The notes beneath the pieces were generated by a model that saw only the letters and a program-made list of their open reading frames with translations, was not told where the DNA came from and ran no database searches. Positions 1,251-16,952 of a DNA stretch of 64,000 nt are shown in pieces. A program made the translations under genes and the position numbers. Source of the DNA: Vermamoeba vermiformis (lineage: Eukaryota). The stretch is from assembly GCA_045837725.1 (NCBI GenBank), contig JBEWZL010000260.1:372001-436000 (forward strand). The letters are read 5' to 3'. Positions within the stretch are counted from its first letter, which is position 1. The number at the start of each line of letters is the position of its first letter.

Positions 1251-3244
1251 ATGGTGTCATATAATTTAGGGATTTTATTTTTGTTCACTTTCGGTTACTT
1301 TACGCACCACGCGATTGCGGATTTCAGCATCGCCGCTCCGAATATTCCTGTAAATAACTTCGTACTTCAAGGAAACGGATCTATATCGACAGGAAGTATA
1401 ATTTTAAGCTTAGCCGAACAAGGTACCGGATCTGTTGTTTACTGGAGCGAGGCCCAAAACGTATTGGATGGATTCACTACCACATTAACATACCAAAGTA
1501 CGAGCTGTGACACTATTGTCTGGTCTGGAGGAGCGGACGGGTAAGATCTCGTGGGCGACTGTTATTAAAGTATTAATTTTTTATTATTTTAGTTTTGCGT
1601 TCTTCATTGCACCGTCAATTAATACTAACGAAGACATATCGTTTGGATCCTCGTTGGGTCTTACTGAAAAAACTAGCATCGCGTTAGTAGGCTTTATTGT
1701 TTGGCAAGGCAAGATCCTGTTCAAAGCAAAGTACGTCTTTGATAAGACTCTAAAGGGTCAAATATTCATTGAAATATTAGTTTTTATCGATACTCGATGG
1801 TTATTGCAATTTATACAAAGTCAAACTTTTTAAGCTTTTACTGAGTTTGGTAATATAGCGCTGTGGGCATGACTATGGGCCCTGCCGACAATGTTCCTTT
1901 TCTGCAAGACATGAATATGTTGTCTTGGCGATGCTCAGGTCCGCTTACCGTTACGATCGACTACTCCCCGCCATCCAGTTTCCGGGTAGCTAAAAAAACT
2001 ATTGGTCTATCATTTTAAAGATATTAATTCGATGTGTTTAATTAGATTAGAGCTCCAGTTACCGCAACGGATCTGACCTTCACGTTGGACATTACGCAGT
2101 ACTTTGGAGCTGGCAAATACTACCTTGGCTTGAGCGGCGCAACTGGCGGTGGATATATGCAGCAAGAAATAACTACGTGGGACTTTACAGCTAGTAAGGA
2201 TATTAATATACAATAGAATTAAATTTGAAAATTAATGTTCGGTACAGCGCCGACTGGTCTGGTACCAATTTTGGAGTGCTTTGAGGACTTAGGGGGAGGC
2301 TCTTATATAGCTCATTTCGGTTATAATAATCTCGGAAGTGTGTCCAAGCAGTTTGATATAGGCCCCCAGAACTCTTTCTCGCCAGGTGATGCAGATCGAG
2401 GTCAATTGACGACATTCGCACCAGGCAGATCTCGTACGTTAAACAAAATATATTTCACCCTTGCTAATTTCTACTAGAGTATTACCCTGTTAATGCCTTT
2501 TCGATTCCTTGGGATGGACAAACGACGACGTGGACTTTAGACGATCATCAACTTACCATTAATACTGCCAACATCAATAGTCTTTGTCCGTCAGCATTGA
2601 AAGTATCCGTTACATTTACAGCTGCGCGAAATTTGACGGATGCGGAGATAGCAACCATTGTACAATCGATCGCTACTCTGCTGCAGATCTCGCCTTCTCG
2701 AATTATTGTGATTGGATATACTTATGGCGGAGGTGTTAAACGATCGATCAATCAAGCGGATCTGGCCACACTCGAACTCGAGATCGCTGGTGCAGGTTCT
2801 GGAACCAACGAACCTTCAGCATCTCAAAGTGTTCAAACTTTCATTCAAAGTGCTTCAAACACGACTTTAATGAACCAAGTACTCAATCCTGATGGTTCGA
2901 GCACTGTAGGATTCGTTTCGTCAGGCTTGAAAGAGACCGGATCCGAGGAGAATGGCGATCGGGTGGCGCAAGCTCCAGTTGCTAGTCCTATTGATACTCC
3001 GATCTCCTCTCCAACTGATCCGCCCAACACCTCCTCGCCGCCTTCGTCATCGCCAGTTAATAGCGAAGTGCCTAGTGCTGGGCCAAGCAACGAAAATCAG
3101 CCGCAATCAGCTGCTGTGCCTAGATCTGCTGCGCCGAGTAAAACCGCGACACCACAACAGCCAGCAGATGCAAAGTCTATTGGCGGTGCAATGACGCCTG
3201 TCTATTCTCTTGTAATTATGTTTGTATTGTACGTTACTGTATAG
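1251..3244 (+). CDS. Secreted/GPI-type surface protein: signal peptide, L-type (legume/ConA-like) lectin domain, 'PILEC' domain, SEA-like domain, S/P-rich stalk, hydrophobic tail
   Basis: Spliced model gives GGADG|FAFFIAP and YYLGLSGATGGGYMQQEITTWDF, matching the legume-lectin GADGFAF and GFSAATG..I.SW.F motifs. PILECFED..IAHFGYNN..DRGQLTTFAPGRS follows. N- and C-termini are hydrophobic. Confidence 0.8.
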
Positions 3245-3501
3245 TGCAGATTGTATAAAAATAAATACCACCACGCAAGCAAAAAAGCGGCTTGCAAAGG
3301 TAAAATTGTAAAAATGTCGTCAGTAGTGACATGAATGCCAAGCGGGGTGAGGCTTTTTGAGCTGTCGTTGGATGAAATTTCGCCGAAGATTCTTTGTTCG
3401 CAAAAGTCCCCTGTTTGTCCCGTCCTGTCAAACTGCTCGCGTTTCCGTGTTCTGTCATATAATTTGATTCCATACCACGACCACATACGAATCGACTTCT
3501 A

Positions 3502-4889
3502 ATGGCAAAGTTATATCCCCTTCTCTTTGTTTTTGCTGTCGTTGGATTTGCTTCGGTAAGTCCCAACTTTGAATTAAATAATTAACTAAATATTAATGAT
3601 ATCAATAAATTAGGCTGCCGAACCAGCATGGCTAGCAGGCAAACCAATGAATCAATGGTTTGAAATTAACGGCACGAGCGGTGCTGGCGGAGCAGCACTG
3701 AATGCTTGGGGCAGTTTCGTTCTTCGAGAAGACACTACGGAGCTTTTTGTCGCTGCCAGTGGCGGCCATGGAGACTCTTATGATAATCGAGTTGTCTCCA
3801 TTAAGCTGACAGACGATCAGCCACAGTGGATCGTACGCGTACAGCCGACTCCCCAGGAACTTGTCGTTCAAGACGTGCCCTACTATAAAGATGGCTTGCC
3901 TTCTTCTCGTCACAACTATCAACACAGCATGTGGGTCCCGGCAATTAATCGCCTCATTATGTGCGGCGCTTATGCCGTGTACGGATCTGCCTATGCCTTT
4001 CCGACGATTGACGGATTCAATCCTGACACGAATCAATGGGATCCACAAAACACTTGGCCAAACATCACTTAAGGATACGGAGTGCTTCGTGAAACTAACA
4101 GCAGCATCATTTGGGCCAACAGCTTGACTCGTATCGATTTGGAGAAGAAAGAGTTGACAAAGCCAATCACCACGACTGCCAATGTCTTTGCACGCTGGCC
4201 ATGGGCGCATGACACGCGCCGTCATCAACTCTTCTCGCTGCAATTTGGAGACGGTCAAGGCTTTAATACCGAGTTAGGTATTCAAGCCGCACGTATTCCA
4301 CTAAACCCTGGTGACACGCAGTACAAAGTCACTTTCAAAAACAGCTCCACAACGGATCTGTTCATCTCCGAAGCCCCAACGTACGCTGGCATGGACTACG
4401 ATCCCATGAATGACCGTTTCCTGTTCTACTACGGTCAACTTACCTCTGTTGGTCGCATCTACGTCATCACTCCGAACGATGGCAGTGATGGTTGGGAAAT
4501 GAGCACTTTGCCTTTGGCCGACGGATCTGCAACACCGCCCTCCGCTCCTGGGGCTGGTGTCAACAAAAGATTTCTTTACGTACCTGGCCTCAATGTGTTT
4601 GTGATGCAGCCATCGGTGAGCAGCAACATTTGGTTCATTCGTGTTGGTTCTTTCGGTAAGTCAAGACACTACTGTCATCATAAAGTGAGTTAGTAGTAAT
4701 TAATTGGCGTTAGAACAAATACCTCAATCAGCGCCGTATGTAGCAAGTCCTCAAACAACTGCTCCTCAGTCATCGAACTCTCCTCAATCAAGCTCTAATG
4801 TGCCGAAAGCAAGGACGAGCGATGTTTCTGCCGTTATGAGCTACCTATCAGTGATAGTAGTGATAATCAGTCTCGTTTTAATGAGCTAA
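3502..4889 (+). pseudogene. Secreted/GPI-type putative beta-propeller protein, copy A, with an in-frame TAA at 4070-4072 (recent pseudogene, null allele or sequencing error)
   Basis: Exons 3502-3555 (signal peptide MAKLYPLLFVFAVVGFAS), 3614-4655 and 4714-4889. Collinear with copy B; ACT TAA GGA here corresponds to ACT AAA GGA (T-K-G) in copy B. Confidence 0.7.
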
Positions 4890-5135
4890 AAACCGAGCCA
4901 TTATTATTTTATGTACTAGTAAATGACGTTATTTTTGTAATACGCTAATAAATGAACGATTATATTAGGATTTGTGAGTCGGTTACCGTGATGACTGTTG
5001 ATCGATCGGTGACACTCTGGTGAAATTTCAATCCAACGTCCCCTGGGGACAGGCCTGTCCCGTCCCTTATTTAGCCATAAATACTCGTGGTCTTTAATAT
5101 ATTAAATTCCATTCCGCGAACACGAATCAGCTCTG

Positions 5136-6540
5136 ATGTTTTCAAGGTTGTATTTCCTTCTCTTTCTTTTCGCTGTCGTTGGAGCTACTTCGGTAAGTGC
5201 CAACTTTCCCACATTGGCATTTGAATATTACCTCAAACCATTGTTAGGCCGCCGAACCAGCATGGTTAGCAGGCAAGCCAATGAATCAATGGTTTGAAAT
5301 CAACGGCACGAGCGGTGCTGGAGGAGCAGCAATTGATCCTTGGGGCAGCTTCGTTCTTCGAGAAGACACCACGGAGTTGTTCGTCGTTGCTAACGGTGGT
5401 CATCATGACTCTCATGATAATCGAGTTGTCTCCATTAAGCTGACAGACGATCAGCCACAGTGGATCATGCGCGCACAGCCAACTCCCCAAGAGTTTGTCG
5501 TTGAAGACGTGGCCTACTATAAAGATGGCTTGCCTTCTTCTCGCCACAACTATCAACACAGCATGTGGGTTCCTGCAATCAATAGAATTATTCTATGTGG
5601 TGCCTACGGTGTATTTGGAAGTGGTACGGCTTTTCCCACAATTGACGGATTCAATCCTGACACGAATCAATGGGATCCGCAAAACACTTGGCCAAACATC
5701 ACTAAAGGATACGGAGTACTTCGTGAAACCAACAGCAGCATCATTTGGGCCAACAGCTTGACTCGTATTGATTTGGAGAAGAAAGAGTTGACAAACCCAA
5801 TCACCAAGATTGCTAACATCTTTGCACGCTGGCCATGGGCACATGACACGCGTCGTCATCAACTTTTCACACTGGAGTTCGGAGACGGTCAAGGCTATGA
5901 TACGGATTTAGGCGTGCAAGCGTCGCGTATTCCACTCAACCCTGGTGACACGCAGTACAAAGTCACTTTCAAAAACAGTAGTGCGCTGGATCTGTTCATC
6001 TCCGAAGCTCCAACGTACTCTGCCATGGACTATGATCCCGTGAATGACCGCTTTCTATTCTACTATGGCCAGCTCTCCTCGGTCGGACGTATCTACGTCA
6101 TCACTCCGAATGATGGCAGTGATGGTTGGGAAATGAGTACTTTGCCTTTGACTGAGGGATCTGCGACACCACCCTCTACGCCCAGCTCTGGATCAGGCAT
6201 CAACAAGCGGTTTCTTTACGTACCTGGTCTCAATGTGTTTGTGATGCAGCCATTGGCAAGCAGTAACATTTGGTTCATTCGCGTCGGTTCTTTTGGTAAG
6301 TCGAGCAGCAACAGCATTAACTTTATGCACGAGTTAGTGTTAATCGATTGAATGATATTAGAACAAATACCTCAATCAGCGCCGTATGTTGCAAGTCCTC
6401 AAACAACTGCTCCTCAATCAAGCTCGCCTCAAGGTAACTCTAACGTGCCGAAAGCAAGGACAAGCGACGTAACTCACGTAACGAACTACCTTTCTTTACT
6501 GTTGACTATTAGTGGCATCGTATTGGTGTTGCAACTATAG
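5136..6540 (+). CDS. Secreted/GPI-type putative Kelch-like beta-propeller protein, copy B (intact)
   Basis: Exons 5136-5192 (signal peptide), 5248-6295 (intronless core with GGHHDSHDN, YYKDGLPSSRHNY, MDYDPVNDRFLFY, RFLYVPGLNVFV) and 6362-6540 (S/Q/P stalk + hydrophobic tail). Confidence 0.8.
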
Positions 6541-6645
6541 AAATTTTAAATAAACTGTCATTAGTGGTCCGATCTGCGGCAGAAAAAAGTTCAGTGATGA
6601 CTCGATCCGTAACTAGTTAGAAAGGCTTACGTAACTTTTAGTAGC

Positions 6646-9425
6646 TCAATACAGGTCCTTAAGTCTCCTATTCTCTTCTTTCAGCCGCTTAATCTCTTCT
6701 AATAACTCTTGCTTCTCGCCGTAATGATGTTGCATCAAAGCATTAATTTCCATTTGTTGGATCTGGAACTGTCTTAATAGCTCCAGATGCAAGTTCTGAA
6801 CTTGACCCAGGACCTCTTCTCTGAACGATGCCAAGCTATCTGAGATAACACCTTGCAATAACTGTTGTTGAAACTGCAAAGCTTGGTTGACACTCTGCGG
6901 TGGGCTCGTGTATTCGGAACCAGATCCGCTGCTGTGACTCGCCAGTACGGCCGGCTGTAACTGCGGTGCGGGCTTCTTAATGGTCTCGGCTGCAATGCTC
7001 GCTGTACTAGACTCAACAGTCTGCATTGTTGACACGTCTGTAACTTTCTGTTGACCAAGGTTGAGGCTCTTGCGTGTGCCTGCAGGGGCAGTCATTTCTA
7101 CTGAAGGCGAGGACTGGTAGTTCGTGAAGCTGCCCGTTGGTGGCAAGTCAACTGCTGTGACGCTAGGAGTGTACTTGGGATAAACAGGGGTCTCAACTTT
7201 GATTGGCGAAACCGGTGGTCTATTGAGCTGTTAGTAGCTGTACGAGTAGGAAGCGCAACATACTCTTCGATAGAGAACGCAGCCTTGTCCTTGTGATCAG
7301 TTTTGGTGACAGGCGTTGAGAACAGGTCCGCATTGGTTGGCTTGTTGATCGTTAATGAAGGGCCAGTTGTGATGGGCGAGATGACATTTGTATTGGTATA
7401 AAGCTCGTTGCTGTACGTGTCTTTTCCTAACGGAGACAAGACATCTCCTGCCATCGGTGAGCTCATCTTCGCTGTCACTAACGGAGAAGATGTTGTGACG
7501 TGGTGAATGGGAGACAAGACGCTGAAGTTGTTGCCGGTCTTAGTGCTCAAAGGCGATAAGACGCCATTGTCGAACGACATATTAGGACCTCCTGGAGTGT
7601 GCAATGAGCGGTCCATTGATGAATTGACATCGAGGTTTGCCATTGGTCTGATGGGTGATAGAACGTCTTCAGGACGCGTTGGTGTCGCTGCAATTCATTA
7701 TTAGAACTTCCATCAATAATACATCCATAGAACTTACCCCCTTTCAACGGTGAAAGCACGTCACCTACTTCATGAGCGCCTCCTGGACGAGCAAAAGTAT
7801 CGTCTGTGGAGTCATCGACACCGCTATTAAATGACATGGCTGAAGGGCTCGTGGGGATAAAATCGTCCTTAATCAACTCGGACTACACAGACATGAGTAA
7901 TAATATCTTATACTGATCAGTTTAAACAATCCTTACCTTCACTTCAGCGTGCTGGAGTTGAATGGATCTGATGATGGTGCTATGAGCCTGAACCTCACTA
8001 ACAGCCTTAACTTCATTGCGAATGTCGTACACGATAATTTTGCCTATCGCGCAAGGTCAGTACAATTAATGTAATAAGCCACAGTTGAGAAAACCATACC
8101 CGAAGCAGTACCAACCACCAATGTATTGCCATCGTCGTGCAAGTCCATGGCCGTCAAAGGAACTTGTGTTTGAATGACCTTGGAGGCCCTATTAAGTTTA
8201 TTAATGATATGACCGAAGGCTAAGTAATAGGACGGACGTACGCTTGTTTGACTGTATCGATGAGCACGATCTTTTTATCAAGACCGGCTGAAATAAGAAG
8301 CGTTGGCATAGTTGGTGAGTAAACTATGGCACTAGTCGGTGCAGTGTGGCCTATTTCGTATGAAAAATATCAGATTAAAAGGTGTTACTAAGGCATAATA
8401 TCGCTCTTAACACGTGCCTTTGAACGCTCCAATTGGTTGCTTCTTTGTGTAGTCCCATATGTGAACTGCACCCGAATCTGCACATGTAGCAAATTGGTTC
8501 TTTTTCAACGGTGCGTATCTGATAGCCTTGAAAGCCTAAACAAATCAGAGACATTAGAACACATTCGCATACACAGTTTGAATACTATCACGCTTCAAAT
8601 ATTAAATTCCGTATTTTCGGCCTCGACTACTACTTACTGCGTCTTCTAACTTATATTGAGCCACTGTTTTGCCGCTCAGTAAGTTGTGCACATGCAGCTC
8701 TCCGTTGAGTGTACACGAGGCTAAGTGAGAGTCTGTACGGCTGAATCGTATACATGTGATAGTATCCGTGTGTGTCTATACATATATATTATTAAAACTA
8801 ACAAAATCGAGCGTAGACCGTAACACTAGCAACCGAGATCAAGGATCTAGGATCTCTAGTCTACTACATGGCAAGCTTTTGACGTACCTTGAATAACTTA
8901 ACTACGCTCTTTTTCTTTAAATCCCAAATTTTAACGAGGTTATCGGAGCCTCCTGTAGCTAGATAACGAGATCCGGTACTGAAGCACAGGGAATTCGTTT
9001 CCTAAATGCTAGTTAGCAATACTGGTGAATATTAAATGCTGCTTACGCAATTATCCTTGTCGGGGAACATTCCTAACGAAGCACCGTCGGCTCTGTTCAA
9101 ATAGATTTTTCCATCTGCACTGCACGTCGCCAATAATTTATCTAAATTATTGAATATTAATAAATAGATGCACGTAATTATGTATATCACTAAAACGCTC
9201 GTAGAAGCCGAAATAACATAATTAAATTCAAATTGATTTTCTAAAAAGGCGCCAAATAATATTACGCCCTTGCAATCGAATCTATTCAATCTCCTTACTA
9301 TTATGGTTCCAAGATACTTCGTTAATTTCGCCTTGGTGCTGTTTTTTAAATTCTACAACCGCTTCGAGCTTTGGAACTCGATAAGTTTTGATCACATCCG
9401 CAGCTGAAGCAACTATATTCTCCAT
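6646..9425 (-). CDS. NEDD1: NEDD1/GCP-WD, gamma-tubulin ring complex targeting WD40 protein
   Basis: N-terminal WD40 exons (EVSWNHN.KLLATCSADGKI, YLATGGSDNLVKIWDL, LLISAGLDKKI). C-terminal coiled coil VQNLHLELLRQFQIQQ..LLEEIKRLKEENRRLK is typical of NEDD1. Confidence 0.88.
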
Positions 9426-12245: not shown

Positions 12246-15200
12246 ATGTCCCAGTCAGATTCTGGACAAGACCAAGTTGTTGAAACAGACCCTACTGGTC
12301 GTTATGTTAGGGTAAGCTAGTCGTTTTTATTCTTGGATTGCTACGAAGCAATCGAAATGGCTTTGTACAATCGATAGTATGCACGAATTGGACAAAATGT
12401 GTTCGTATATAATTTATTAGGGATATAATTTAAATATTCAGAGCAAATCCCGTTACACAAACGGTTTTTTTTGATCACTAATTTCGATCGAAGGACTATT
12501 CATTAAATTATTAAAGACTTCGATATAAAATCATAATATACTACTCAATTATAGCATATTGCACGATACAAAGCCAAATTTCAAGATAATTGCATGATTG
12601 CGCCTCGTTAATGAAAAATTATTTTTGTTTGTAATTTCTGACTGTAATTTCATTTACTATTCTCTATATTATTCTTTTATACTAATACCTATGCGTTAAA
12701 TAGGGAAATGATGAACTTGGCCGTGGCGCTTCGAAGATCGTCTATCGAGCCATTGATCGTGATCGAGGACTCGAAGTAGCATGGAATCAAATCAAGTTAT
12801 CACGTTCCGTGGATCTTGACAAGCTCTACAAAGAGATCCAATTGCTACAATCGCTCAATCACCCTAATATTATCATTTTCTACCACTCTTGGGTCGACGA
12901 AGAAAAATTGCAATTAAATTTCATTACAGAGTGCATGACCTCAGGCACTTTAAGGCAGTAAGTACTCTTATTCTTTAATATAATTCTCAAATTTCTGTAA
13001 TTATAGTACTAAAATTAAATTGGTCCCGATAGGGAATTGCAATTTTTTTGCAAGACCTGAACTTTTTTTGCCCAAAAGTTTACCAAAGCGAATTTTCGAT
13101 ACAACTTTTAGCTTGGCGTGGAATTATTCGGTGTTGCAATCATATTAATCATGTTCCGTGCGTAGGTTTATTCGAAAGGCGACAAAAGTGAAGCTGCGCG
13201 TAATCAAAAATTGGTGCATTCAAATTCTAGAAGGCCTCAATTATTTGCACACGCGTCCCTCTCCCATTATTCATCGTGATATTAAGTGCGACAATATCTT
13301 CATTAATGGCACGCTCGGCGAAGTCAAAATCGGAGATTTGGGCTTAGCTACCATTGCTACAGTTCAAGCCCCGCTCAGTATCATTGGTACACCCGAGTTT
13401 ATGGCTCCAGAGTTCTACGAAGAGAAATACAACGAAAAAGTCGATATTTGGGCTTTTGGCATGGCAGTCTTAGAGATGGTCACGCTAGAATATCCTTATA
13501 GCGAATGCTCGAACCCAGCATCAATTTTCAAGAAAGTTTCTTCGGTAAGAAAATTTCATTTTTTCGAAGTGCTAGCACGAGCGTAGGTATTAAAGTACTT
13601 CTTATAGGGCCAAAGACCTCGCGCACTCGCTAGAATCAAAGACCCTGAAGTGTTTCAGTTCCTGTTGGACTGTTTAACAAACCCTCGTGACAGAAAGTCA
13701 GCCGCACAATTGCTTCGACACCCGTTCCTGACCTGCAGTGATGACGACAAGAATGACAGATTGTTGGACATGCGATCTGACGAAGAGATTGACGCCTGGC
13801 TTGCTCAACAAGATCCTGCAGTTATGACCTTTGATCCTACAATTACAGCTACCGACATAGCTCCAATGAGCCCTTCATCGGATGACGACAAAACTTCAGC
13901 CAACTTCTTGGTCACACCAAAGCAATCAGGGTCCTCGGGTTCCTCGCGCCCTGTGTCTATGACTAAGCCAATGTCACCGCCTCTTCGAGGAAACAACTCG
14001 TCTTCTGGAATTGATTCTGAATACAGTGACAACGATTTGACATCAGACGATGACTTCAACAGCTCTGCGGATTTGGATATCAGAGCGTCGCGTAGCCGAA
14101 CAGTCAGCAGGACTGGTAGCAGAGGCGAGAGTCCCGTGCCAATCACAGCCTACGATGATGAGTTCGACGATATTCCGTCAAGAAAGACAAGCAATCAAAG
14201 TGTTGGCTCTGGCACCTCTGAAAAGAAGGAAACCAAACGCACGCGCTTCATTAGCCGAAGTCAGAATCCTAATCTGCCAAGCTTGAATCCTGCTACAGCA
14301 GTTCTGTCCACTAGTGGGCCTCCATCACGGCTTTTGGATACATACTTAGAGGACTCTGACGATGACCTCTCGTTGGACACACTTCAGCCCGAGTCTGAAG
14401 ACAGCTTGGCCAAGAAGCGTCAAGCTAACTTACGCAGACAGACTTCTCAACCTGTCATTCCTCGGTTCAAGACCGAAGTCAGAAACAACATTGACGACGC
14501 CGCTTCCGACATGGGAGACGACGACAAGAAGCAAGAAGCGATGTTCACTATTCCCATGAAGCTCAGATTAACAACACCCGAGAAGACTATTGATATCGAA
14601 TTCGAGTTCCACTTGCTCACTGATACTGCTACTGGAGTCGCTATCGAATTGATCCACGAGCTCGGTCTGCCAGAACAACACACTAACAAGGTATCTAGCT
14701 ACATTCAGAACCGTGTTGATGAGTGGGTTCGCAAACAAGCGAGCGTCAAGCGTGCACTTGGCGAAGGCACAATCAAGCGTCATTTCCGCAAGACTTCCAA
14801 GACAGATTTCCATATTACAGCCTCGCCCTCAAGGCCAAACATCGCTCTGGATAGCGCTGCTCGCAACCCTGCTGTACCCGAAGAGCCTACTGGCAGCGCT
14901 GAATCTGGCACAGCCGCCTCACCGGAACACGAGCTCACGACGCGTGAAAAGCATTTGAGTGCTGGCCTTGCTCAGGTTCTTACACCTCGCATGACTCACA
15001 TTGACGATAAGGCTCTCAAGCGCATGTCCGTCCAAGTAGTTGGTTCTATCGCCCCTCTCGAAGTCAGTGGCCAAATCGCAGAAGAATTGAAATCAAAGCA
15101 CGACAGCGAGCGAAAGGTTTTAGAAGGTCAAATCCAAGCATTATTAGAGCGACAAAACTACGAACTTCAAGAGCTAGAACGCAAGAAACAGCGCAGGTCA

Positions 15201-16952
15201 GTCATGCTGGAAGGTGATCGCAGGTTTGAAGGCCTCTTCACTTCACCTGAGATGTACGAAGCCTTGAACGGCATGAACTTGCCTAACTCCCCGCCGATGA
15301 TGCTTCCTTCCACGTCGTTTTCTGGCCAAGGCACTGGTAACGGTGGCAGTCACGTCGGATCTCCTGATACTTCAAGATCCGCGTTCCACACGTACATGAA
15401 TTCTAATCAAGGAATGGCACCTACCTCGATGCCCGTTCAAGCCACGCAAGCAGGCATGGTTTTGCAACCTCAAGTCAACATTCCTCAACAGCCTATGGTT
15501 ATGGGACAACCGACTTCGATGCCTGTTTTGCCAACTTCAGTACCTGGATCTGGCCTTAACACACCCGAGCTTCGTGGCTCGAACCCGGCTGGCGGACAGC
15601 TTTCCATCCAGTCTATGCCTGTTATTGCGCAGCCAATTGCACAGCCCGTCATTCAGCCTGGCATGATCCAACAACCCATTATCAACCAACCTCTACCTGT
15701 ACAGACACCTATGACAATACCTCAACAACCCGTTATCGATCAAAATCTATTGGCCCAACAGCTGATGGGACTTCCTTACCATTCAGCAGGCGAAGGTTCT
15801 CGGCGGTCGTCTGCAGTGATTCAACCAGGAATGCTCATGACTCCTGGTGGAATGATGCAATCCAACAGTCAGACTTATGTTCAACAACCGACTCAACAGC
15901 CTGTGCAAGTGCAACAACCTGTACAAGTGCCCCAACAAGTTGTTGATCCGAACCAGGCCCAACAGTTTGCCACGCAACAGTACACACAGCAAGTAACTCA
16001 GCAACCCGTGCAAGTGCAACAACCTGTACAAGTGCCTCAGCAAGTTGTGGACCCCAATCAAGCACAACAGTACACCGGTCAACAAGTCGTTCAGCAGCCG
16101 CAACCTCAAGTGCAGCTCGATCAGAACTTGCTCAATGCTTTGTTCTTGGCACCTCAATTACAATTGCAACAGCAAGTTACTCTGCCCAACGGCACGACGA
16201 TCCCGTTGCAAACCTTGTTGCAGCTCTATCCTCAGTTGCTTCAACTCGGTGTTCCTCAGCAACAACCGATGATGATGCAACAGCCCTTGCAAGTTGCGCA
16301 ATTGCAACAACAGCTGGCTCAACTTCAGTTGCAACAGCAGAACCCTCAATTGCAACAACTCCAACAATTGCAGCAACAACAATTGCTTCAACAACAACAG
16401 CTGTTGGCTGCTGGTGTCTCGATGCAACCCCACGTCAGCATGCCGTCACACTTCGTGCCTCAGCCTGTCGTGACTGCTCCTCCCAACCCTCAAGTCGTGC
16501 AAACAATGCCCAATATATCAGTTGTGCAGCCTACTGGTGTTCCTCAGTTGTCCGTGCAGTCTCCTCAAGTCTCTGCCTCCGCTCCCGTGACTCCAGTCAA
16601 CAGCACAACCCCGATGAGCACCAACAATACGAGCGCTGTTATGACCAACCCAACACCCGATTCTAAAGCTCCTTTGGTTCCTATTGAGACCCCTCTCAAG
16701 AACCAAGTCATGAAGAATCTCGTGACGCCGTTCTTCCCGAGCGACAGGCTCTCGTACTTGAACGATATTGGCGCCAGTGGCCTTGTTTCGCCGCGTGTGA
16801 CAACGGATAGAAACTCGCTGACGGATAGATCCCATCAACAATCTACTACGACTACTTACGTTGTTGAAACTACGCAATCTGATCTGCCCAACGGTCACTC
16901 CATGGATCATCCGCAACAGTCTGAAATCCAGGCTTTAGGCCCTCAGTCGTAA
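12246..16952 (+). CDS. WNK: WNK (With-No-lysine K) Ser/Thr kinase with CCT/PF2-like domain, coiled coil and long Q/P-rich disordered tail
   Basis: [10 protein letters not shown]|..[10 protein letters not shown] (Lys in subdomain I), [77 protein letters not shown] is CCT-like. Confidence 0.93.
15891..16070 (+). repeat. Intragenic 75-nt direct repeat (2 copies, 105-nt period) encoding [25 protein letters not shown]
   Basis: Copies 15891-15965 and 15996-16070 encode an identical peptide and differ at 11 synonymous positions. Confidence 0.9.

Follow-up and report, generated by a model that had tools for sequence, protein, structure and literature searches.

A tandem pair of predicted surface-protein genes in Vermamoeba vermiformis built around a propeller domain of probable bacterial descent

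We analyzed a stretch of 64,000 nucleotides (nt) from the Vermamoeba vermiformis assembly GCA_045837725.1 (contig JBEWZL010000260.1, positions 372,001 to 436,000 of the forward strand), referred to below as the window, in which two related genes, copy 1 and copy 2, stand in tandem between positions 3502 and 6540. In the explanation that we find best overall, with a probability of about 0.75, an ancestor shared by a small group of microbial eukaryotes would have acquired the gene for a secreted bacterial six-bladed Kelch-type beta-propeller and built it into a host gene, which was afterwards duplicated in tandem, maintained by selection and retargeted to the cell surface. The transferred part would be a single exon that covers the conserved residues of the bacterial domain from first to last. 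The eukaryotic signal peptide would come from a short exon on its 5' side, and a Ser/Pro/Gln stalk, together with a hydrophobic C-terminal signal of the glycosylphosphatidylinositol (GPI) type, from an exon on its 3' side. Transfer of a bacterial gene followed by retargeting is well supported by the data described here.

The relatives of the propeller core are overwhelmingly bacterial wherever an organism is named. A word-indexed protein search with the core gave 105 matches, of which the nine with organism names are all bacterial and most of the others are unnamed metagenome proteins. An exhaustive search extended the family to 925 cluster representatives at E<=1e-3 (153 at E<=1e-30), and a scan of prokaryotic species genomes, for which 13 closer sequences served as query, located 47 loci in Myxococcota, Burkholderiales, Bdellovibrionota, Planctomycetota, Bacteroidota and Lysobacterales. 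ESM Atlas clusters with domain labels were likewise mainly bacterial, at 55-100% of their labelled members. The best matches to the core were P0002, which is the copy 1 allele of another assembly (86% identity), the 423-residue protein P0003 (71%), and P0015 and P0052 (64-67%). Next came Bacteroidota proteins with sorting domains of the type IX secretion system (T9SS), at 52-57% identity over 98-99% of the core, and then more remote matches in Planctomycetota, Archangium and others at 40-47%; the matches in Burkholderiales and Myxococcota, at 38-50%, are farther off. The first-pass annotation, made from the sequence by a model, had pointed to uncharacterised proteobacterial proteins as relatives. 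That they are uncharacterised, secreted and bacterial was borne out, but the closest of them are the Bacteroidota T9SS proteins and a clade with a protein from a Bdellovibrio metagenome-assembled genome (MAG), not proteobacterial ones.

All of the bacterial relatives look exported, by virtue of signal peptides, lipoprotein-like starts or T9SS sorting domains. The T9SS cargo proteins P0005 and P0013 of Bacteroidota and the lipoprotein-like Bdellovibrio-MAG protein P0012 (locus L002) are true homologues of the window core with the same domain limits. They differ in that their export signals are bacterial signal peptides or lipoprotein starts, with a Por_Secre_tail in Bacteroidota, and in that they have no introns, no stalk and no GPI-type tail. 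In the Pfam search Por_Secre_tail was absent from the window core, and exon 3 of the window genes encodes a low-complexity stalk and tail instead. On one Bacteroidota MAG (L001:2408-7302) the propeller paralogues P0013 and P0005 lie head to tail, preceded by a T9SS-tailed protein and followed by a peptidase of the dipeptidyl peptidase IV type; the family has therefore been tandemly duplicated in bacteria too. Full-text literature search listings contained nothing on this propeller family or its transfer.

Phylogenetic analysis placed the eukaryote-type sequences inside this bacterial family. Using FastTree on 274 domain rows, ten eukaryote-type rows formed one group within a 14-row set that includes the Bdellovibrio-MAG protein, and this set itself lay within a 23-row set with Bacteroidota proteins. 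The second tree was calculated with IQ-TREE under LG+C20+F+G4 from 59 rows, comprising the 23-row set cleared of near-duplicates, a further 30 taken from the next larger clade, and 14 named loci at a greater distance. It reproduced the same branching order, with support of 100/100 for the eukaryote-type clade, 99/93 for that clade plus the Bdellovibrio-MAG clade, and 96/98 when the Bacteroidota T9SS clade is added. The horizontal acquisition proposed in the first-pass annotation is thus in keeping with a nested position defined by three supported branches. Broadly spread eukaryotic relatives, which would have spoken for vertical inheritance, were not found among the 105 matches, none of whose nine named members is eukaryotic, and a propeller fold is predicted for the core (see below).

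An old eukaryotic gene that was inherited vertically and lost nearly everywhere, or a movement of the gene from eukaryotes into bacteria, would be compatible with a tree that has no root, with the abundance of Kelch propellers in eukaryotes and with a composition that carries no foreign trace. We consider such an origin very improbable, since in addition to the purely bacterial set of named matches, the 925 representatives cover at least five bacterial phyla and the three nested branches put the eukaryote-type clade inside a bacterial subgroup. The bacterial members moreover carry features found only in prokaryotes (T9SS domains and lipoprotein-like starts), and the core is 52-57% identical to bacterial proteins as against 9-14% to solved eukaryotic Kelch domains. 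Under a eukaryotic origin, the whole multi-phylum bacterial family would have to descend from this one small clade.

Both genes follow a three-exon plan on the plus strand, as determined by gene models over positions 3000-7200, and are tandem paralogues whose core proteins are 87% identical (Table 1). All four introns begin with GTAAGT, end with TAG and are AT-rich (GC content 0.19-0.38). Exon 1 codes for the hydrophobic N-terminus alone, and exon 3 for a Ser-, Pro-, Gln- and Thr-rich stretch of approximately 40 residues and the hydrophobic end of the protein after it. On the Kyte-Doolittle scale the strongly hydrophobic segments are confined to these two ends, the sole exception being an 11-residue strand in the core of copy 2. 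The layout given in the first-pass annotation, namely a tandem pair with an intron-free core of about 1.05 kb set between a signal-peptide exon and a stalk/tail exon, agrees with the gene models and with the exon joints described below. A tblastn search of the 64-kb window revealed no third copy. In another assembly both genes are found on a single contig of 9161 nt, where P0002 is the allele of copy 1 and P0107 the allele of copy 2.

Table 1. Features of the tandem gene pair and its upstream neighbour (positions are those of the window)
Feature	Position	Strand	Basis
Copy 1, whole gene	3502-4889	+	gene model
Copy 1 exon 1: start codon and signal-peptide-like hydrophobic N-terminus, 18 codons	3502-3555	+	gene model, hydropathy, X5 joint
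Copy 1 intron 1: 58 nt, GTAAGT..TAG, GC 0.19	3556-3613	+	gene model; absent from X5 contig
Copy 1 core exon: 1042 nt, predicted Kelch-type propeller	3614-4655	+	gene model
Copy 1 in-frame TAA, codon 171	4070-4072	+	sequence; AAA in copy 2, TCA in related organism
Copy 1 intron 2: 58 nt, GTAAGT..TAG, phase 1	4656-4713	+	gene model, X5 joint
Copy 1 exon 3: Ser/Pro/Gln stalk, hydrophobic C-terminal tail, TAA stop	4714-4889	+	gene model, hydropathy
Copy 2, whole gene, 427 codons	5136-6540	+	gene model
Copy 2 exon 1: start codon and signal-peptide-like N-terminus, 19 codons	5136-5192	+	gene model, hydropathy
Copy 2 intron 1: 55 nt, GTAAGT..TAG	5193-5247	+	gene model, X5 contig
Copy 2 core exon: 1048 nt, intact, predicted six-bladed Kelch-type propeller of probable bacterial descent	5248-6295	+	gene model, searches, structure model, tree
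Copy 2 intron 2: 66 nt, GTAAGT..TAG, phase 1	6296-6361	+	gene model; same-place intron in P0108, P0015, P0052, P0215 (read-through)
Copy 2 exon 3: S/P/Q/T-rich stalk of ~40 residues, 17-residue hydrophobic terminal tail (GPI-signal-like), TAG stop	6362-6540	+	gene model, hydropathy, P0003
Upstream multi-exon gene: signal-peptide-like start, stalk, hydrophobic tail; context, outside the pair	1251-3244	+	sequence reading, Pfam

Support for the splicing pattern was obtained from two sequencing runs and from related proteins. Run X5 consists of contigs from a related organism, 95-99% alike to the window, and its library type (RNA) is a guess; run X1 consists of DNA contigs that bear the species label of the window and possibly come from the same sample. 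One X5 contig skips from 3554 to 3613 (58 nt, GT..AG), corresponding to intron 1 of copy 1. An X5 contig at a depth of 3.6 skips from 5192 to 5249 with one other letter between, corresponding to intron 1 of copy 2, and an X5 contig joins position 4654/4655 to the start of an exon 3, where no more than 29 letters lie on the exon 3 side and are identical in both copies. None of these exon joints occurs in the X1 DNA contigs, which indicates that X5 represents spliced transcripts. At the protein level, the 423-residue relative P0003 continues directly over the predicted junction of exons 2 and 3 and has a similar N-terminus, stalk and tail, and the unspliced gene calls P0108, P0107, P0015, P0052 and P0215 read into the intron at the same codon. 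This 3' intron is common to several related species, which favours a single acquisition before their divergence.

A count of GTAAGT over the whole window gave 33 occurrences on the plus strand and 44 on the minus strand, compared with approximately 20 expected from base composition, an excess that fits frequent short introns with this donor site. Stop-free frames of at least 300 amino acids (aa) number four in the window: the copy 2 core, a 331-aa helicase exon, a 511-aa frame and a 1114-aa frame. A core exon of about 1 kb is thus uncommon in the window without being unique, and is by itself no evidence of foreign origin. The longest of these exon-like frames, 1114 codons at positions 13608-16952, is very rich in Gln, Pro and Val repeats.

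The limits of the core exon coincide with those of the bacterial domain. In the alignment, mature bacterial proteins begin a few residues before a conserved Pro-Ala-Trp, and exon 2 begins three residues before it. Stand-alone bacterial proteins end just past the last strand, within a few residues of the end of exon 2, and 203 of the 226 homologues have at most 15 residues after the domain. Because the borders of exon 2 match those of the bacterial domain, the introns appear to mark the limits of the transferred piece. The core is not set apart from the host by composition: its GC content is 0.49-0.505 and its GC content at third codon positions (GC3) 0.49-0.51, compared with 0.39-0.505 and 0.47-0.58 for the host open reading frames (ORFs) of the window, where two long ORFs have a GC content of 0.495-0.505 and three shorter ones 0.39-0.46. 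Between copy 1 and copy 2, synonymous divergence (dS) is 0.53 and nonsynonymous divergence (dN) 0.07, giving a dN/dS of 0.13. The pair is under purifying selection and is host-like in composition.

A long uninterrupted ORF with close bacterial relatives is also what bacterial contamination or an assembly chimera would produce. In both copies, however, introns of spliceosomal type stand beside the core and are removed in the X5 contigs, and the bacterial start with any ribosome-binding context has been replaced by a separate exon. The same window also carries eukaryotic genes, namely a PCI-domain exon and a DDX46/PRP5 helicase whose nearest organism-named relatives are at most 67% identical. 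GC and GC3 of the core fall inside the range of the host ORFs, and the X1 DNA contigs cover every one of the 30 bins across the gene borders. Because of the spliced flanking introns, the eukaryotic neighbour genes and the host-range composition, we exclude contamination as an explanation and regard it as the most improbable of the alternatives considered here, with hardly any weight left to it.

The exons added at either side of the core are predicted to determine where the protein goes. Hydropathy analysis identified a hydrophobic N-terminal segment at residues 3-20 of copy 1 and 4-21 of copy 2, with small residues ahead of the mature domain. At the other end, hydrophobic tails at residues 403-423 (copy 1) and 411-427 (copy 2) close the proteins, and Ser, Asp or Ala residues lie 7-10 positions upstream of them. 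The hallmarks of a GPI signal are a terminal hydrophobic tail with no charged residues after it, a short polar spacer and small residues at the omega site, and the C-termini of both copies match this rule. A hydrophobic stretch at the very end of the protein is retained in both copies and in P0003 even though the tail residues differ. Because the 5' exon would give a signal peptide and the 3' exon a stalk and a GPI-type signal, the propeller would be exported and, raised on the stalk, would sit on the outside of the plasma membrane. Display of the propeller at the cell surface by means of a GPI anchor is accordingly named here as a probable, predicted arrangement, held with somewhat less confidence than the overall explanation.

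One alternative is that the transfer took place as described and that the product, instead of carrying a GPI anchor, crosses the membrane once or is merely released as a secreted protein. With its 14-17 hydrophobic residues, the tail might in principle be long enough to cross a membrane. We think this outcome unlikely, given that the protein closes with the hydrophobic stretch and has no charged cytosolic residues beyond it, and that the small residues 7-10 positions upstream, like the tail pattern as a whole, are kept in both copies and in P0003. A source for the stalk/tail exon in the stalks of the upstream genes was also considered. The best matches elsewhere in the window, at 2999-3091 (E 0.006) and 875-1000 (E 0.14), are of low complexity and were scored without composition correction, and they were not taken as homology.

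The first-pass annotation overlooked the in-frame stop at codon 171 of copy 1, which reads TAA where copy 2 has AAA. The X1 DNA contigs retain A at position 4071, with no other letter at a depth of 1011.7. At the same position X5 reads C, giving TCA (Ser), and P0002 likewise has Ser. Since both X5 and P0002 carry Ser at this site, the stop is a recent change in this strain or assembly. Copy 1 is therefore truncated in this assembly by a recent nonsense change, and copy 2 is intact. The dN/dS downstream of the copy 1 stop is 0.11.

Several observations speak against the explanation as a whole. The trees are unrooted, and bacterial phyla are mixed on the IQ-TREE phylogeny, which requires nine label changes compared with a minimum of four; because of this mixing no donor phylum can be named. 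The eukaryotic nature of P0003, P0015 and P0052 was deduced from their own sequences. Splicing was seen in the related organism of X5, and the RNA runs X21 and X23, which bear the species label of the window, gave 0 reads and hence constitute no test of expression. Copy 1 is disrupted in the assembly analyzed, and the anchor assignment draws on hydropathy and on rules taken from the literature.

The fold of the core was examined by structure prediction and by several kinds of comparison. Pfam returned Kelch_3 alone, at E 0.68 and 10.6 bits compared with a cut-off of 22, so that no Kelch model exceeded its gathering score, and NCBIfam returned 0 families. The AlphaFold2 model of the core, with 44 homologues in the input, is all-beta and has a mean predicted local distance difference test score (pLDDT) of 96.2 and a predicted template modelling score (pTM) of 0.93. 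Its top Foldseek matches are the Kelch domains of FBXO42, TYW4, LZTR1 and KLHL12 and the designed SAKe proteins, with E of approximately 1e-8, template modelling (TM) scores of 0.5-0.63 and identities of 9-14%. The VIA structure search, which is independent of Foldseek, gave Z scores of 24.9 for the LZTR1 Kelch domain (284 aligned residues, root mean square deviation (rmsd) 2.9 Å), 22.5 for KLHDC3, 21.9 for a further solved Kelch domain and 19.8 for YjhT. At the sequence level, a single-sequence search reached a designed Kelch SAKe protein at E 5.4e-13, and a 44-member profile matched SAKe (1.5e-13), KLHL20 (3.3e-5) and KEAP1 (3.5e-4). Since the model, Foldseek, VIA and the profile matches agree, the core is, as modelled, a divergent six-bladed Kelch-type beta-propeller, as the first-pass annotation had supposed on the basis of sequence motifs.

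Compared with the Kelch domains of LZTR1, KLHDC2/3/10, KLHL12/20 and SAKe, the window core has the same predicted six-bladed fold at an identity of 8-14%. The window protein is predicted to be extracellular whereas those proteins are cytosolic, it has no BTB/BACK or other partner domains, and its core bears a conserved long loop between strands 72-76 and 105-108 with D93, R99 and H100. The periplasmic sialic-acid mutarotase YjhT/NanM (PDB 2uvk, Z 19.8) is likewise an exported bacterial six-bladed Kelch-type propeller, and acts on a sugar; its identity to the core is 10%, and no sequence-level relationship between the two was found.

Conserved His, Arg and Asp residues, which the first-pass annotation had emphasized, are indeed present in the alignment of 44 sequences. 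Invariant positions are D93, G94, H100 and W142, and H52, N58, R99, Y102, D133, D213 and D263 are kept in at least 90% of the sequences. In the AlphaFold2 model, residues D93-Y102 lie in the long loop mentioned above, and this conserved loop motif falls outside the canonical Kelch pattern. The gene calls of P0015 and P0230 break between the residues aligned to Y91-K92 and D93 of the core, a sign that in those species the core may hold an additional intron, gained after the transfer.

Domain context in bacteria provided a tentative lead to function. The propeller stands alone in 146 of the 226 homologues, and in 20 of them it has more than 600 residues ahead of it. These long bacterial forms have about 1100 residues, e.g. 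L014:3769-7017 (Massilia) and L012:3760-7014 (Roseateles), with the propeller as the C-terminal module. For a 1083-aa Massilia protein, ESM Atlas puts the N-terminal part beside PcRGLX-like clusters, and a structure model (pLDDT 79.9) consists of beta-sandwich domains followed by a helical domain and the propeller. Foldseek matched this model to the exo-rhamnogalacturonan lyase PcRGLX of family PL26 (PDB 5xqj) at E 1.5e-5. The resemblance of the approximately 740 N-terminal residues of the long homologues to this lyase is weak, and the window genes have no such module. Because all of the bacterial relatives are secreted and approximately 1 in 11 is fused behind a module that resembles a PL26 lyase, the propeller could conceivably bind, or help to process, an extracellular polysaccharide or glycoconjugate. 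We put this forward as a tentative prediction that falls short of an even chance, and within it binding is more likely than catalysis.

A number of findings count against a glycan-related role. The PL26 match superposes poorly (TM 0.19-0.24, rmsd 17-21 Å), and the Pfam family PcRGLX_1st was present, below its cut-off, in one of eight long forms and absent in the other seven. The N-terminal part of the long forms had no sequence match in the PDB. Kelch propellers mostly bind proteins rather than sugars. A recurrent partner beside the bacterial homologues was not found in a survey of 71 flanking ORFs at 39 of 46 loci, in which the commonest family, Abhydrolase_1, accounted for 4 of the 71; the survey skipped the 7 loci where the ORF of the homologue itself was not picked.

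The propeller might also be an enzyme that acts on an extracellular substrate and not a binding module. Its invariant or near-invariant polar residues (D93, H100, H52, N58, R99, D133, D213 and D263) and the position of the conserved loop motif outside the Kelch pattern would suit an active site, and some six-bladed propellers are enzymes, examples being YjhT (Z 19.8) as well as lactonases and sialidases (Z of about 16-17). The best structural matches are nevertheless ligand-binding Kelch domains, no enzyme family model in Pfam or NCBIfam matches the core, and the place of the propeller behind a lyase-like module in the long bacterial forms is typical of accessory modules. An enzymatic role thus seems unlikely to us, and less likely than a binding role of the kind predicted above.

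The genes upstream of the pair, which the first-pass annotation took for lectin surface genes, were examined for context. The partial gene at 81-1003, whose start lies outside the window, and the gene at 1251-3244 are multi-exon paralogues with a common Cys-containing block, and both end in a Ser/Thr/Pro stalk and a hydrophobic tail. One 56-aa exon of the latter (2046-2213) gave a sub-threshold match to the L-type lectin family Lectin_legB (E 1.4e-4, 21.9 bits compared with a cut-off of 26.3), and seven other exon pieces of the upstream neighbours matched no family in Pfam. To judge from sequence features, the neighbourhood looks like a run of surface proteins. That it forms a prey-recognition cluster is conjecture.

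Three further proteins of the family, P0016, P0017 and P0019, have signal-peptide-like starts, Pro-rich stalks and terminal hydrophobic tails. In the IQ-TREE phylogeny they group together as a clade of their own (100/100) amid Burkholderiales-type sequences, well away from the clade of the window. A tree that joins the two clades was worse by 50.6 log-likelihood units (approximately unbiased (AU) test, p 0.02), the group having been named after the tree was seen. A metagenome scan for this second clade gave, among the matches listed, only one unrelated locus of 25% identity (L048). By their architecture these proteins may also be eukaryotic. That eukaryotes captured the bacterial propeller family at least twice independently, and each time made it a stalked GPI-type surface protein, is in our view a doubtful proposition.

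The pair described here does not represent a new principle, and there are well-documented cases of acquired bacterial genes to which introns and signals were added. Like bacterial genes acquired by protists, fungi and small animals, it combines a nested phylogeny with host-like composition, introns and host-added targeting signals. It differs from them in that each of the two added signals has an exon of its own, set precisely at a border of the domain, and in that the propeller family has no described function. On the explanation that we favour, it would be a clear example of a foreign gene made into a working eukaryotic gene, with the domain as one exon and the export and anchor signals as short exons at its edges. 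The analysis also brings to notice a large family of secreted propellers for which there is no Pfam or NCBIfam model. Those of its members that have organism names are bacterial, and many belong to groups that are predatory or degrade polymers. For work on this family, a eukaryotic version displayed at the surface would make the search for the ligand easier, and the nonsense allele of copy 1 would serve as a natural partial knock-out for strain comparison. Should both stalked clades be eukaryotic, the propeller would have proved its use more than once as a module for extracellular recognition, perhaps of polysaccharides on bacterial surfaces.

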